Source of the DNA: Candidatus Woesearchaeota archaeon
Lineage (GTDB): Archaea > Nanobdellota > Nanobdellia > SCGC-AAA011-G17 > GW2011-AR20
Direction of reading: 5' to 3'
DNA: 35,923 nucleotides
NCBI GenBank assembly: GCA_018302915.1
Contig: JAGVZB010000020.1
Span: 1-35,923 of the forward strand
This document shows positions 744 to 31,300 of this stretch, one piece after another (within the stretch, counting starts at the first letter, position 1; every line of letters begins with the position of its first letter). The notes under the pieces were generated by a model that saw nothing but the letters and a program-made list of their open reading frames with translations, did no database searches and had not been told where the DNA came from. The position numbers and the translations under genes are program-made.

Positions 744-1583
744 ATGGTCTACATTCCAGTAGATATAGAAAAATCCATTGCAAAGGAATGCAAAAGAAGA
801 GGTTATAGTGATAAAACAATTAAAAGTTATACATATTGCATAAACAGGTTTCTAAAACACACCAACAAATCTCTTAATAAAATCAGCAAAAAAGATGTAA
901 GGTTATTTCTAGAGGGTTTATCTGAGAATAACAGAGCAGGAAACACAATGAATTTGTACCACATGGCAATCAGATTCCTGTTTGAAGAGGTTCTGGACAA
1001 AAGAATATGGATAGATATCAAATACAGCAAAATCCCAGAGAAAATTCCTGTTGTAATATCAAAATATGAAATAAAAGAGCTATTTAATGCAATTGAAAAT
1101 CCAAAGCATAAATTGATGATTCAAATGATGTATTCTGCCGGATTGAGGGTAAGTGAACTAATAAATTTGAAGGTTGATGATCTAGAAATAGGAAAAGGCT
1201 ATGGATTTGTAAGAAAAGGAAAAGGAAACAAAGACAGGATATTCATAATAGCAAATGCACTTAAAGAAAATATTAAAAAATTTATAGAATCAAAAAAACC
1301 AAATGAGTTTAATTGCTTGTTTACAAGCGTAAAAGGAAGAAAGTATAATATAAGCAGCCCAAGGCAGATAATTAGAAAAGCTTTGAAGAGCGCAGGAATC
1401 AACAAAAATATATCCTGCCATACCTTAAGGCATTCATTTGCAACACATTTGATTGAAAATGGCTACTCCATAAGCGAGGTTCAGGCTTTATTAGGGCATA
1501 AAAGCCCAGAGACAACATTTATTTATGTTCATGCCGCTTCCCCAAACATGATAAAGGTTAAAAGCCCACTGGATGAATTATAA
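744..1583 (+). CDS. xerA: tyrosine recombinase, XerA/XerCD-like (phage-integrase family)
   Basis: 279 aa. N-terminal core-binding-type segment (TIKSYTYCINRFLKH). C-terminal catalytic signature GLRVSEL...HTLRHSFATHLIENGYSISEVQALLGHKSPETTFIYVH (R...HxxR...H...Y). Confidence 0.75.
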   Translation: MVYIPVDIEKSIAKECKRRGYSDKTIKSYTYCINRFLKHTNKSLNKISKKDVRLFLEGLSENNRAGNTMNLYHMAIRFLFEEVLDKRIWIDIKYSKIPEKIPVVISKYEIKELFNAIENPKHKLMIQMMYSAGLRVSELINLKVDDLEIGKGYGFVRKGKGNKDRIFIIANALKENIKKFIESKKPNEFNCLFTSVKGRKYNISSPRQIIRKALKSAGINKNISCHTLRHSFATHLIENGYSISEVQALLGHKSPETTFIYVHAASPNMIKVKSPLDEL

Positions 1584-3166: not shown

Positions 3167-4969
3167 ATGGAAATAGAGAAACTAGTGCCTGACACAAGCG
3201 TTATCATTGAAAACATAATATCACAGAAGCTTGAAAAGAAGGAAATAAGGATAAAAGAGCTAATAATTCACGAGGCTGTTCTTGCCGAGCTTGAGCACCA
3301 GGCCAACCTTGGAAAGGAAATAGGAAGGTTCGGGCTTGATGAGCTGAAAAAATTAAGGGAGTTATCCAAGAAATTAAAATTTGAAATAAAATACACTGGA
3401 AGAAGGCCAAACACTTCAGAAATAAGAAGCGCTTCTTTGGGAGAGATTGATTCCTTGATAAGGGATTTGGCATATAATGAAGATGCAATGCTTCTTACAG
3501 GAGACAAGGTCCAAAGCAAGGTTGCAGAAGCAAAGGGAATAAATGTAATGTACATAGAGCCAGTAATAAAGGCAAAAAAGCTAAAGATTGAAAAATTCTT
3601 CGATGAAAAAACAATGAGCGTCCACTTGAGGGAAAATTACAAGCCATATGCTAAGAAAGGAATGCCTGGGCAATGGGAGACTGTAATGCTAAGCGACAAG
3701 AACCTTGACCAGGATGAAATCATAGACTTCAGCAGGAACATTATTGAGGAAGCAAAAATAAGGAAGGAAGGCTTCATAGAAATAGAAAGAAGAGGAAGCT
3801 CTATTGTACAGATAGGAAACTTCAGGATTGTAATCACAAGGCCGCCTTTTTCGGATGCATATGAAATAACATGCGTAAGGCCAATAAAAAAATTAAACAT
3901 CAATGATTATGAATTAAGCGAGAAATTAAAAAAAAGAATTGAGGAACAAGCTGAAGGAATTTTAATTGCCGGCTCGCCAGGCATGGGGAAAAGTACCTGT
4001 GCAAGTGCACTGGCAGAATTTTATGCCTCTAAAAACAAAACAGTAAAGACAATAGAGGCGCCAAGAGACCTGCAGCTAAGCGACAACATAACGCAGTATG
4101 CAATCTCCCACGGAACTCCTGAAGAGATACATGATGTATTATTATTATCAAGGCCAGATTATGTGATATATGATGAGATGAGAAACACAACAGACTTCAG
4201 GCTTTTTGCAGATCTAAGATTAAGCGGAATCGGAATTGTAGGAGTGATTCATGCAACTGCCCCTGTGGATTCAATACAAAGATTCATCGGAAGGATGGAT
4301 CTTGGCGTGATACCACAGATAATTGACACCGTCGTGTTCATCAAGGATGGAAAGGTCGGGAAAGTCCTAAGTTTGATGATGACTGTCAAAGTTCCAAGCG
4401 GAATGACCGAGGCTGACCTGTCAAGGCCTGTAGTCGAAGTGAGAGACTTTGAAAATGACAAACTTGAATATGAGATTTATTCCTACGGAGAAGAAACCGT
4501 CGTGATTCCTGTTTCCAAAGATGAAAAGAAAGCACCACTGAAGGAATTGGCATCAAGGCAGATTGAATATGAGCTACAAAGAGAAATTCCCGGGGTAAAG
4601 GCTGACTTAGTCTCAGACAGCAGAGCCATAATTTATGTTCCTGAAGATGACATCGGAAAGGTAATAGGAAAAAAAGGTGAAAGAATAACTGAAATAGAAA
4701 AAAGGCTCGGGATTCACATTGATGTAAAACCGCTTGATGAAAGCAAGAGCGAAATCAAGTACAACCTAAGCGAGAAAAACAATGTATTGTTCTTTTATGT
4801 AAGCAACAACCTGTCAAACAAGAATGTTGACTTTCACGGGAAAGACGGATACCTGTTCAGTGCAAGAGTAGGAAATAAAGGAGAAATTAAAATCAAAAAA
4901 AGAAGCAAGATGGCTGACAGGCTGCTAAAAATGCTTGACAGGAATGAAAAAGTTATACTAAAAATCTAA
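3167..4969 (+). CDS. PIN-domain / P-loop (PilT-like) ATPase with C-terminal KH domain
   Basis: N-terminal PIN-like segment (LVPDTSVII...LLTGD). Walker A GSPGMGKST. Walker B-like YVIYDEMR. KH GxxG motif VIGKKGERITEIEKRLG. This architecture is conserved in archaea. Confidence 0.75.
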   Translation: MEIEKLVPDTSVIIENIISQKLEKKEIRIKELIIHEAVLAELEHQANLGKEIGRFGLDELKKLRELSKKLKFEIKYTGRRPNTSEIRSASLGEIDSLIRDLAYNEDAMLLTGDKVQSKVAEAKGINVMYIEPVIKAKKLKIEKFFDEKTMSVHLRENYKPYAKKGMPGQWETVMLSDKNLDQDEIIDFSRNIIEEAKIRKEGFIEIERRGSSIVQIGNFRIVITRPPFSDAYEITCVRPIKKLNINDYELSEKLKKRIEEQAEGILIAGSPGMGKSTCASALAEFYASKNKTVKTIEAPRDLQLSDNITQYAISHGTPEEIHDVLLLSRPDYVIYDEMRNTTDFRLFADLRLSGIGIVGVIHATAPVDSIQRFIGRMDLGVIPQIIDTVVFIKDGKVGKVLSLMMTVKVPSGMTEADLSRPVVEVRDFENDKLEYEIYSYGEETVVIPVSKDEKKAPLKELASRQIEYELQREIPGVKADLVSDSRAIIYVPEDDIGKVIGKKGERITEIEKRLGIHIDVKPLDESKSEIKYNLSEKNNVLFFYVSNNLSNKNVDFHGKDGYLFSARVGNKGEIKIKKRSKMADRLLKMLDRNEKVILKI

Positions 4970-15595: not shown

Positions 15596-15699
15596 CGCCG
15601 GGACTGGGATTTGAACCCAGACACCCAAAAGGGTCAAGCTTTCCAGGCCTACACTTCTTTTGCAAGAATTTGTGCAATACCAGATTATGCGATCCCGGC
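15596..15699 (-). tRNA. tRNA-Ser (anticodon GGA) with a 21-nt non-canonical intron at 29/30
   Basis: Acceptor GCCGGGA/TCCCGGC, discriminator G, T arm CTGGG-TTCAAAT-CCCAG. After removing 15649-15669 the anticodon arm is CAAGC-CTGGAAA-GCTTG, followed by a long variable arm A-CCC-TTTT-GGG-TGT (class II). Mature length 83 nt. Confidence 0.8.
15649..15669 (-). other. tRNA-Ser intron (BHB-type, in the anticodon stem)
   Basis: RNA sense A-TTCTT-GCAA-AAGAA-GTGT-AG. Central helix GCAC/GTGT, 3-nt bulges AAA and AGG, inner helix TTCTT/AAGAA capped by the GNRA loop GCAA. Confidence 0.75.
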
Positions 15700-29902: not shown

Positions 29903-29987
29903 GCCTCGATAGCTCAGTTAGTAGAGCAGCAGAATTATGCTGAATCTCGTAAACTGCAGGCCGGGGGTGCAAATCCCTCTCGAGGCT
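29903..29987 (+). tRNA. tRNA-Thr (anticodon CGT) with a 12-nt non-canonical intron at 30/31
   Basis: Acceptor GCCTCGA/TCGAGGC, discriminator T, D arm GCTC-AGTTAGTA-GAGC. After removing 29933-29944 the anticodon arm is GCAGT-CTCGTAA-ACTGC. T arm GGGGG-TGCAAAT-CCCTC. Mature length 73 nt. Confidence 0.75.
29933..29944 (+). other. tRNA-Thr(CGT) mini-intron
   Basis: AATTATGCTGAA. Central helix CAGC(29927-29930)/GCTG(29939-29942). The 5' bulge AG|A merges into a 5-nt loop. The 3' bulge is AA|T. Confidence 0.65.
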
Positions 29988-29994
29988 TATCAAA

Positions 29995-30999
29995 ATGGTG
30001 AGAATATATTTTAAAGATAAAAATATAAGAAATAAATTCTTTAAAGACTTAATTAGATACTCTAACCTAAAAACCTGGAAAGAATTAAGAAACAAATTTG
30101 ATATTCCAAGGACCAATCTTGAAAATTATAGAAATGGAAAATTAACCATACCAAAGAATGTTTATGATAATTTTAATCTTTTTCTACCTAAAAAATTAAT
30201 AGAACATTATTCTCTTAAAATTAATTCAAAAGAAGATAGATGGGGGATGATTAAAGGGGGAAAGCATAATTATATTAAAAATAAACATCTTTATGATTTA
30301 GGGAGAAAAAAAGCTTGGAAAGTAACAAGAAAAAAATTTGGTATTGAGAAAATAGATGTTAATGCCCCCATTAATTCAGAGTTTTGTGAAGTTTTGGGTG
30401 CTTTTATTGGAGATGGATCATTAAATATATATCGAAAGAATAAATATTTTGTTCAATTTTCTGGAGATTCTAGATATGACTTATCTTATTATAAAAGTAG
30501 AATTATACCTCTTGTAAAGAGTCTTATTAATAGAAATCCTTATATAAGAATTAAAAAAAATAGTATGTGGGTCACTTTTTATTCTAAATATCTTTTAAAG
30601 ATATTAACTGATAGGTTTTCTATGCCAAAAGGAAAAAAGGTTTATACTGTTAAAATACCTGATGAGATATTAAAAGATAAAACTAAATTAATTTTCACAT
30701 TAAGAGGTATCTTTGATACTGATGGTTGTGTGTTTTTTGATAAAAGAAATATTTACAAAAAACCTTATATAAGAATAGCATTACAGTTAGCAAATAAAGA
30801 TTTGATTGAGCAAGTATCTGATAGATTAACTTTTTTAAAGATACCCCACACAAGATATGATAGGATAAATGTAGGAAGTTTTGGAGCTTATACAATTCAA
30901 ATAAATGGAATAGATAATGTTAAAAAGTATTGCGAGACAATAGGATTCTATAACCAAAGGCACTTGAAAAAGTTAAATTTTAATTTTCAAAAGGTTTAA
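29995..30999 (+). CDS. free-standing double-motif LAGLIDADG homing-endonuclease-family protein with an N-terminal HTH-like region
   Basis: Motifs LGAFIGDGSL and LRGIFDTDGCVF, about 100 aa apart, both keeping the acidic residue. 334 aa. Starts 8 nt after tRNA-Thr(CGT). Confidence 0.8.
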   Translation: MVRIYFKDKNIRNKFFKDLIRYSNLKTWKELRNKFDIPRTNLENYRNGKLTIPKNVYDNFNLFLPKKLIEHYSLKINSKEDRWGMIKGGKHNYIKNKHLYDLGRKKAWKVTRKKFGIEKIDVNAPINSEFCEVLGAFIGDGSLNIYRKNKYFVQFSGDSRYDLSYYKSRIIPLVKSLINRNPYIRIKKNSMWVTFYSKYLLKILTDRFSMPKGKKVYTVKIPDEILKDKTKLIFTLRGIFDTDGCVFFDKRNIYKKPYIRIALQLANKDLIEQVSDRLTFLKIPHTRYDRINVGSFGAYTIQINGIDNVKKYCETIGFYNQRHLKKLNFNFQKV

Positions 31000-31166
31000 A
31001 AAAAGATATTTTGATTTAATACCATGATAAAAAAAGACAGAAAGAAGAAACCAGTATGGAAAGCATACAAGAAGAAACATCCTGACAAGAAACACGGAAA
31101 GAGAGCTTTCAGAAAGAAGAAAGCTTAAACTTAATGTGGGAGTGCCGGAGTGGTCAAACGGGCTGG

Positions 31167-31188
31167 GTCTATCAATTATAGAAGCCAA
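31167..31188 (+). other. tRNA-Leu intron 1 (BHB, in the anticodon stem 30/31)
   Basis: G-TCTAT-CAATT-ATAGA-AGCC-AA. Central helix GGCT(31161-31164)/AGCC(31183-31186), bulges GG|G and AA|A, inner helix TCTAT/ATAGA. Confidence 0.75.
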
Positions 31189-31195
31189 ACTTAAG

Positions 31196-31207
31196 ACCAT
31201 TTAAGAA
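31196..31207 (+). other. tRNA-Leu intron 2 (mini-intron at canonical 37/38)
   Basis: ACCATTTAAGAA. Central helix CTTA(31190-31193)/TAAG(31202-31205), bulges AG|A and AA|A. The junction is ambiguous by 1 nt because A flanks both ends. Confidence 0.65.
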
Positions 31208-31300
31208 ATCCAGTGGCTTAGTGCCTACGCAGGTTCGAACCCTGTCTCCCACACTCATTTTTAGATACTTTTAAAAAATAATTTCAATTCTTTATTTTAT

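Follow-up and report, generated by a model that had tools for sequence, protein, structure and literature searches.

The tRNA-Leu(UAA) gene of a woesearchaeal contig

The DNA analyzed here (hereinafter the window) comprises the 35,923 nucleotides (nt) of contig JAGVZB010000020.1 from a Candidatus Woesearchaeota archaeon (assembly GCA_018302915.1), has a GC content of 34% and encodes, among other proteins, archaeal-type PheRS alpha, PheRS beta, GluRS, GatD/GatE and FtsZ. Judging by this gene content, the host is an archaeon; the FtsZ protein is 60% identical to that of a metagenome-assembled genome (MAG) labelled Woesearchaeota (L017), and the D-arm signature of the tRNA gene described below is shared with MAGs of Woesearchaeota and Pacearchaeota. 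The subject of this analysis is a class II tRNA-Leu(UAA) gene that occupies 118 nt of the forward strand (31136-31253), does not encode the CCA end and gives a predicted spliced product of 84 nt.

In gene order, the segments read GTGGGAG-TG-CCGG-AGTGGTCAA-ACGG-G-CTGG, then 42 intervening nt, then TCCAG-TGGCTTAGTGCCTAC-GCAGG-TTCGAAC-CCTGT-CTCCCAC-A. The Rfam model RF00005 matches the whole gene with a score of 38.4 bits (E = 8.6e-05; gathering score 29), aligning the acceptor, D, variable and T arms and leaving 41 nt in place of the 7-nt anticodon loop. The 15-nt variable arm, the leucine anticodon UAA, G37 and A73 are those of a class II tRNA-Leu, and the class II cloverleaf is both the minimum free energy (MFE) structure (-32.2 kcal/mol) and the centroid fold of the 84-nt product. 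Six metagenome assemblies obtained independently, from ENA and JGI and with some sets labelled ANAN16, contain the gene without a single base change, and the contig occurs in samples of the Rifle aquifer such as SAMN03842431, SAMN03842451 and JGI 3300025121. A preliminary description of this locus had presented it as a 118-nt class II tRNA-Leu(UAA) gene with clean arms, in which no 7-nt anticodon loop can be read from the contiguous DNA and two excisions produce a perfect anticodon arm. All its statements on the sequence proved correct, and intronless relatives, a syntenic orthologue and the recurrence and covariation of the 30/31 intron (all described below), as three lines of evidence separate from its own reasoning, support the gene identity, both intron positions and the exact junctions that it named.

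Two excisions in splice register restore the anticodon arm

When the stem ends are kept at 31163 and 31213, a 5-bp anticodon stem with U33 and a purine at position 37 is obtained neither from the uninterrupted DNA nor by removing any one segment. Removal of two segments, 31167-31188 (22 nt, at tRNA position 30/31) and 31196-31207 (12 nt, at 37/38), produces the arm CTGGA-CTTAAGA-TCCAG and restores a canonical cloverleaf, as is typical of introns excised by EndA. A clean arm in itself is weak evidence because arbitrary two-excision schemes yield 47 acceptable anticodon arms, and the argument is therefore carried by the register of the splice motifs and by the comparative data. When the splice register, i.e., a 4-bp helix, 3-nt bulges and a cut after the second bulge nucleotide, was demanded for both introns, 5 of the 3,480 two-excision schemes were compatible, and the pair named above, with helices that are Watson-Crick throughout, is unique among these in providing U33, a purine at position 37 and a leucine anticodon. 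The other four have C33, or G-U-rich helices with excised pieces of 7-10 nt, or a broken stem. When the 42 intervening nt were shuffled, any double-motif solution with a leucine anticodon appeared in 13 of the 3,000 shuffles. No single excision being sufficient, and the two motifs being separated by 7 exon nt that include the anticodon, this is a gene with multiple introns. Its three exons are contiguous and collinear within the 118 nt, unlike those of split or permuted genes. Self-splicing group I and group II introns possess catalytic RNA cores that run to hundreds of nucleotides, in contrast to the lengths of 22 and 12 nt found here, and the Rfam scan of the window reported no intron family.

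Both motifs consist of a 4-bp central helix, all Watson-Crick, and two 3-nt bulges on opposite strands (Table 1). Intron 1 is the top-scoring bulge-helix-bulge (BHB) candidate of the whole precursor; its central helix uses G25 of the D stem together with C27 and U28 of the anticodon stem, its inner helix has 5 bp and its outer helix is limited to the single pair G24-C32. The isolated segment 31159-31191 folds, as its MFE structure, into the GGCU/AGCC helix, the GGG bulge and the UCUAU/AUAGA hairpin. In intron 2, the inner helix has 0 bp, so that the 5' site falls in a hairpin loop, and the outer helix is the anticodon stem, with 1 bp before and 6 bp after removal of intron 1; the same product also results when 31197-31208 is excised in place of 31196-31207. 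Thus, intron 1 is a relaxed HBh' motif and intron 2 is an hBH, or bulge-helix-loop (BHL), motif. The preliminary description had assigned bulge-helix-bulge geometry to both introns: the helices, bulges and cut register that it listed are indeed present (GGCT/AGCC, GGG and AAA, and TCTAT/ATAGA in intron 1; CTTA/TAAG, AGA and AAA, without an inner helix, in intron 2), but the strict form of the motif is not. It had further noted that the A at 31189, which completes the anticodon stem, is joined to the stem only once intron 1 is removed, in keeping with the A31-U39 pair found in three relatives (L029, L043 and L174).

Intronless relatives, an orthologue and recurrent introns

Relatives were collected by the D arm CCGGAGTGGTCAAACGG in genome and metagenome scans, and all frequencies given here are from the subset of matches listed. 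This D arm is common to more than 200 tRNA-Leu genes of Woesearchaeota and Pacearchaeota. The genome scan returned at least 121 mostly intronless matches, two of which (L029 and L043) are tRNA-Leu(UAA) genes with a contiguous CTGGA-CTTAAGA-TCCAG that Rfam reads as the anticodon arm (58.3 and 60.5 bits, respectively). L029 is identical to the predicted spliced product at 77 of the 84 positions, among them all of positions 7-57. Using a profile hidden Markov model (HMM) of 105 intronless tRNA-Leu relatives, we found that the two-excision product ranks first among 10,015 candidate products (80.4 bits).

The metagenome locus L174 has the same gene order as the window, namely Leu(UAA), Thr(GGU), a 153-aa protein and adenylate kinase, with 33-38% identity between the proteins, and by this synteny its tRNA-Leu(UAA) gene is a true orthologue of the window gene, in a distant relative. 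The gene reads CTGG/30 nt/ACTTAAG/14 nt/ATCCAG, so that the junctions and the helix and bulge register are shared with the window gene while the intron sequences differ; Rfam made no report for it at the gathering score. Two paralogues carry introns of diverged sequence at the same two sites, L217 (Leu-CAA), whose 30/31 intron likewise has 22 nt and the GGCT/AGCC helix, and L129 (Leu-UAG). Canonical introns of 11-16 nt laid out like intron 2 are present in six genes (L229, L189, L174, L129, L198 and L239).

Altogether, at least 116 different tRNA-Leu genes that have the D arm CCGGAGTGGTCAAACGG and contain introns came from the metagenome scan. A solver run in the common register assigned a single 37/38 intron to at least 34 of them, a single 30/31 intron to at least 14 and both to at least 8; L135 and L236 also have both if one mismatch is allowed in the canonical helix. 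Counted over the approximately 116 intron-bearing relatives listed, a 30/31 intron is present in at least 24 and is combined with a 37/38 intron in at least 10, and one gene has three introns. The solver left 24 of 121 sequences unsolved, and only the 30/31, 37/38 and combined classes were used: its other double-intron solutions (32/33, 33/34 and similar) were discarded as spurious, being long canonical introns with a mismatch in the central helix.

The pairing that defines intron 1 was examined in a motif-free control, confined to homologues in which a single excision restores a leucine arm and with no pairing demanded. All 14 homologues with a 30/31 excision have 4 of 4 central-helix pairs; alternative products that arise by chance in the loop have, for the most part, 0-2 pairs in the predicted register. 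In an alignment of the junction regions of 22 homologues (A1; columns 5-8 against columns 27-30), 100% of the cells are paired in the predicted register compared with 12-51% when the register is slid. Two-sided changes affect 3 of the 4 helix pairs (15 cells), and none of 500 shuffles reaches the observed covariation. Positions 27-28 vary according to which anticodon stem is present, and the 3' segment of the intron follows; among the helices seen in homologues are GGAT/ATCC, GGCA/TGCC, GACA/TGTC, GGTC/GACC and GGAC/GTCT.

Some of the relatives show additional features. In the L174 gene (approximately 3320-3490, reverse strand), the T loop is also interrupted, near position 59/60, by a third intron of roughly 30 nt (TTCGAA/TATAAAGAGCTAAAATCTCTTTAAAGAAAT/TCCTGT), with 3 of the 4 central-helix pairs, and five other genes (L138, L197, L209, L222 and L236), in which the sequence diverges straight after GGTTCGAA, may carry a similar T-loop intron. 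The tRNA-Leu genes of L148, L182, L222 and L151 contain two tandem segments resembling anticodon loops (GCTAAGGA..., then GCTTAGG...), each preceded by a possible 3' splice site of a 30/31 intron; the solver gives two arms, with anticodons AAG or UAG. These segments may be the relic of a duplication or might allow alternative splicing to two isoacceptors.

Assignment of the gene and alternative interpretations

We consider it very probable that 31136-31253 is the precursor of a functional class II tRNA-Leu(UAA) with two EndA-type introns, from a groundwater DPANN archaeon of the Woesearchaeota/Pacearchaeota type. Several points weigh against this assignment. Excision, the junctions and the order of splicing are all inferred from the DNA. 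Neither motif is the strict hBHBh' form. The nearest-neighbor MFE structure of the full precursor (-39.5 kcal/mol) is a non-native fold that corresponds to neither of two splice-competent conformers, and there is no EndA or RtcB among the 30 open reading frames (ORFs) of the window scanned against Pfam. The profile-HMM lead of the predicted product over variants with junctions moved by one nt is only 0.1-0.3 bits (80.4 against 80.3). Finally, the sequences of alignment A1 were chosen by a solver that requires pairing, so that the unbiased control is the motif-free test with its 14 homologues.

Among the alternatives, the one that retains most credit, although we regard it as improbable, is that there are two introns but that their junctions lie 1-2 nt away from those proposed. 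Excision of 31168-31189 and 31198-31209 would give CTGGG-CTTAAGA-CCCAG, a smaller shift would give a G31-U39 pair, CTGGG/CCCAG stems do occur in Leu(UAG) relatives, and such products come within 0.1-0.3 bits of the best one in the profile HMM. Because that margin is tiny, A31 is preferred to G31 on the grounds of the motif register and the orthologues. The shifted junctions have no in-register 4-bp helix or 3-nt bulges and are not among the five compatible schemes, the tRNA-Leu(UAA) genes L029, L043 and L174 all have A31-U39, and the L174 sequence offers no G31 alternative; the G31 variants, lacking the motif register and at odds with the orthologues, were accordingly dropped.

A marginally less probable alternative is that the gene is a pseudogene in decay, whose anticodon arm has acquired insertions that splicing does not remove. 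The Rfam score, 20 bits under those of intronless relatives, and the lack of an obvious TATA-like box within about 40 nt upstream, as read from the sequence, would fit such decay. It is difficult to reconcile with four intact arms, an intact variable arm and A73, with the identity of the gene in six assemblies, and with splice motifs in both insertions that restore a perfect arm. Occupation of the same two sites in L174, despite only 33-38% identity of the neighboring proteins, implies long-term selection, and two more tRNA genes of the window use the same intron type.

The weakest alternative, and one to which we assign hardly any probability, is a single long intron, either the 32-nt intron of a class II tRNA-Asp(AUC) reported by ARAGORN in its intron mode (i(39,32), anticodon atc) or the 34-nt insert implied by the Rfam alignment of CUGGG...UCCAG around a 41-nt gap: with fixed stem ends, removing one segment never leaves a 5-bp stem together with U33 and a purine at 37, the ARAGORN product has a shifted stem register, no position 26 and a class II body with A73 combined with an A34 Asp anticodon, its junctions lack a splice motif, and relatives carry CTGGA-CTTAAGA-TCCAG. 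Exhaustive excision led to the rejection of both single-intron readings.

Table 1. Elements of the two-intron tRNA-Leu(UAA) gene and other features of the window
Feature	Position	Strand	Description	Basis
Acceptor stem	31136-31142 / 31246-31252	+	GTGGGAG / CTCCCAC	sequence
D-arm stem and T-arm stem		+	CCGG/ACGG and GCAGG/CCTGT	sequence
Exon 1	31136-31166	+	31 nt, tRNA positions 1-30: acceptor 5' strand, D arm, G26, CTGG of anticodon stem	
Intron 1 central helix, 5' strand	31161-31164	+	GGCT, tRNA positions 25-28; pairs with AGCC at 31183-31186	
Intron 1 5' bulge	31165-31167	+	GGG; predicted cut 31166/31167	
Intron 1	31167-31188	+	22 nt (GTCTATCAATTATAGAAGCCAA); non-canonical, 30/31, anticodon stem 5' strand; relaxed HBh'	
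Intron 1 inner helix (h')	31168-31182	+	TCTAT 31168-31172 / ATAGA 31178-31182, loop CAATT	
Intron 1 central helix, 3' strand	31183-31186	+	AGCC	
Intron 1 3' bulge	31187-31189	+	AAA; predicted cut 31188/31189; A31189 becomes tRNA position 31	
Exon 2 (micro-exon)	31189-31195	+	7 nt, ACTTAAG, positions 31-37 with U33, anticodon UAA, G37	
Intron 2 central helix	31190-31193 / 31202-31205	+	CTTA / TAAG; bulges AGA and AAA	
Intron 2	31196-31207	+	12-nt mini-intron (ACCATTTAAGAA); canonical, 37/38; hBH (BHL)	
Exon 3	31208-31253	+	46 nt: A38, TCCAG, 15-nt variable arm, T arm, acceptor 3' strand, A73	
Variable arm	31214-31228	+	15 nt	sequence
Discriminator	31253	+	A73	sequence
T5 run	31258-31262	+	5 nt past the 3' end of the gene	read from sequence
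Tyrosine recombinase gene	744-1583	+	Phage_integrase, E = 1.4e-40	
tRNA-Ser(GGA) gene, best reading	15596-15699	-	class II; one 21-nt intron, 15649-15669, at 29/30	
tRNA-Thr(CGU) gene	29903-29987	+	12-nt mini-intron, 29933-29944 (AATTATGCTGAA), at 30/31	
LAGLIDADG_3 protein gene	29995-30999	+	334 aa; C-terminal domain, Pfam E = 2.9e-9	
Small basic ORF	31024-31128	+	34 aa, very basic (MIKKDRKKKPVWKAYKKKHPDKKHGKRAFRKKKA)	

A predicted splicing pathway

The steps outlined here follow the established EndA/RtcB pathway, applied to an exon structure, motifs with their register and a conservation of sites that are observed directly. In the precursor, positions 25-28 (GGCU) and the AGCC close to the 3' end of intron 1 would form a 4-bp helix, in which a 3-nt 5' bulge is closed by the 5-bp intron hairpin and the 3' site stays single-stranded (HBh'). 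EndA would cut after the second bulge nucleotide, at 31166/31167 and 31188/31189, and an RtcB-type ligase would join G30 to A31. The 5-bp anticodon stem CUGGA/UCCAG could form only after this ligation and would supply the outer helix of the second motif, composed of the helix CUUA/UAAG, a 3' bulge AAA and a 5' site in a hairpin loop, which would be cut at 31195/31196 and 31207/31208 and ligated in turn; CCA would be added post-transcriptionally. The strict hBHBh' motif is the substrate of narrow-specificity alpha4 and alpha'2 EndA. Because intron 1 has no outer helix to speak of, the host EndA is expected to be of the broad-specificity type.

Intron 1 is probably removed first, as its helix (positions 25-28) competes with the anticodon stem and, once the intron is gone, the MFE fold is the cloverleaf, whose anticodon stem is then complete and presents the second motif; this intermediate is predicted at -34.7 kcal/mol (z = -2.2). 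The opposite order predicts a 9-bp helix between exon 1 with the start of intron 1 and the micro-exon with exon 3, which is not a splice motif. Simultaneous cutting at all four sites would release the 7-nt micro-exon because this pairs only with intron 2. The two splice-competent conformers of the precursor are nearly equal in energy (-25.0 and -25.1 kcal/mol) and the precursor MFE is non-native, so that folding energies do not fix the order and are indicative only.

The precursor has another predicted pairing: G37 with the first 7 nt of intron 2 (GACCAUUU, 31195-31202) can form 8 bp with positions 13-20 in the D loop region (GAGUGGUC, 31148-31155), a helix that dominates the predicted precursor MFE (-39.5 kcal/mol). 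The L174 intron (GAUCACUC), different in sequence, keeps the complementarity to the D loop (shuffle p = 0.03 for the window gene and 0.07 for L174). A general pairing of the D loop with canonical introns found no support over 42 canonical introns of relatives (mean z = -0.02), being confined to the window gene and L174.

Gene finders and the other tRNA genes of the window

The expectation of the preliminary description that standard gene finders are likely to miss or miscall this gene was borne out for ARAGORN. With default settings the program does not report the gene, and its -i option returns a class II "tRNA-Asp(atc)" in which a single 32-nt intron is removed, the stem is shifted and position 26 is absent, a call that is not credible for 31136-31253. 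The program misses or miscalls 3 of the 5 tRNA genes of the window, and in 3 of the 5 a short intron interrupts the 5' strand of the anticodon stem. The 30/31 intron occurs in several tRNA-Leu isoacceptors and in the tRNA-Thr(CGU) of the window, and a similar intron at 29/30 is found in the tRNA-Ser(GGA) of the window.

The tRNA-Ser(GGA) intron has the helix GCAC/GTGT, a 5-bp inner helix TTCTT/AAGAA and cuts at AA/A and AG/G; the spliced form of 83 nt adopts a clean cloverleaf (-34.4 kcal/mol) that ARAGORN calls Ser(gga). From the genomic sequence, ARAGORN -i calls Lys(ctt), and Rfam places the variable arm inside a 39-nt insert. A class I reading of this gene had no solution, and the class II reading gave tRNA-Ser(GGA). 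In tRNA-Thr(CGU), the intron has the helix CAGC/GCTG and cuts at AG/A and AA/T that lead to the arm GCAGT-CTCGTAA-ACTGC; the default ARAGORN call is Ser(gct), and the -i call, Thr(cgt), places the junction at 31/32 and includes an A-A mismatch.

Relation to known interrupted tRNA genes

Every element of this gene, i.e., the 30/31 position, the presence of more than one intron in a tRNA gene and the disruption of tRNA genes in DPANN archaea, is already published; we found no published description of the window gene or of a clade-wide recurrence of the 30/31 intron in tRNA-Leu. A 2014 review includes 29/30 and 30/31 among the non-canonical intron positions of archaeal tRNAs and notes that non-canonical introns may accompany canonical ones in one gene (PMC4090602). 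Records of tRNAs that contain as many as three introns exist for Thermoproteales, ARMAN-2, Methanopyrus kandleri and Asgard archaea, an example, as summarized in the review, being tRNA-Pro(UGG) of Pyrobaculum islandicum, with introns at 25/26, 37/38 and 56/57 (Sugahara 2007/2008 via PMC4090602). Like the multi-intron genes of Thermoproteales, the window gene combines a canonical intron with at least one non-canonical EndA-type intron, involves BHB, HBh' or hBH motifs and needs special software for its detection; unlike them, it belongs to a mesophilic, AT-rich DPANN archaeon and not to a crenarchaeote, and its introns have 22 and 12 nt and lie 7 nt apart.

The tRNA-Lys(CUU) of Nanoarchaeum equitans and Staphylothermus is split at 30/31 (PMC4090602). 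The site of the interruption, in the 5' strand of the anticodon stem, is that of intron 1, and N. equitans belongs to the same superphylum, but the halves of tRNA-Lys come from separate genes and are trans-spliced, whereas the parts of the window gene are joined in cis by a 22-nt intron.

Within the superphylum, ARMAN-2 with its epsilon2 EndA (PMC3239211) and, in a 2018 survey, the Pacearchaeota and Woesearchaeota tRNA sets with an L3-loop alpha4 EndA (PMC5829648) likewise present non-canonical and multiple introns with relaxed motifs; the published ARMAN-2 examples lie in the T loop (53/54 and 59/60), unlike those of the window gene (PMC3239211). That survey, which includes one Pacearchaeota and one Woesearchaeota genome, links the extra "L3" loop of the DPANN alpha4 EndA to more tRNA gene disruption, reports that for some newly sequenced DPANN and Asgard archaea no complete tRNA set could be assembled and urges manual curation; it gives per-genome proportions, and in the portion consulted neither the window gene nor a clade-wide 30/31 intron of tRNA-Leu was found described (PMC5829648). 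The pre-tRNA-Glu(UUC) of M. kandleri, treated in the same survey, also combines a canonical with a non-canonical HBh' intron, both processed by EndA (PMC5829648). Unlike that of the window gene, this precursor belongs to a euryarchaeote and has been tested in vitro. The two M. kandleri introns reportedly both lie in the anticodon arm, with a very short internal exon between them and the non-canonical one at 32/33.

Ordered splicing of multiple introns is known from C. merolae, in which the 37/38 motif is invariably processed last (PMC3978253). The pathway proposed here resembles this in that the 37/38 intron comes last and that one removal creates or stabilizes the next motif; for the window gene, unlike in C. 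merolae, the order is no more than a prediction, based on folding and on how the helix lengths change with the first excision.

That the 30/31 HBh' intron is an ancient family extending through the whole Woesearchaeota/Pacearchaeota lineage (GTDB Nanoarchaeota) appears rather unlikely to us. If it were so, the intron could represent the cis-spliced precursor state of nanoarchaeal split tRNAs, being located at the site of the N. equitans tRNA-Lys split; its combination with a canonical mini-intron would make the order of splicing around a 7-nt anticodon micro-exon obligatory; and the recurrent LAGLIDADG neighbor described below could point to intron mobility or maintenance at the DNA level.

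Regardless of such a family, the current picture of archaeal tRNA splicing is unchanged by this gene and its main value is for annotation. The tRNA-Leu(UAA) reads UUA and UUG, and at 34% GC UUA is presumably a very common codon; unresolved genes of this kind lead to wrong estimates of genome completeness and codon capacity for DPANN archaea. With a 22-nt HBh' intron and a 12-nt BHL intron 7 nt apart, the precursor also offers a compact natural substrate for work on the substrate range and splicing order of DPANN EndA.

Genomic neighborhood

The gene for the LAGLIDADG_3 protein lies between those for tRNA-Thr(CGU) and tRNA-Leu(UAA). In L141, L214 and L236, homologues of this protein (24-35% identity) are encoded on the strand of an intron-bearing tRNA-Leu gene and lie 100-180 nt upstream of it, and in L164/L165 a homologue is encoded about 90 nt downstream of such a gene; among the listed matches of the mostly intronless genome set, homologues were seen only 1-4 kb from tRNA-Leu. 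The adjacency may reflect either conserved synteny or a link to intron mobility.

The small basic ORF, called as a gene in all six assemblies (6/6), ends 8 nt before the tRNA-Leu gene. Since TATA-like A/T runs precede this ORF and not, directly, the tRNA, the two may be co-transcribed. The T5 run past the 3' end of the tRNA gene likely serves as an archaeal terminator. Near the start of the window, the tyrosine recombinase gene is followed by genes for a helix-turn-helix (HTH) protein and then for BacA (undecaprenyl-diphosphatase family); the recombinase may be a XerA-like chromosomal enzyme or part of an integrated element.

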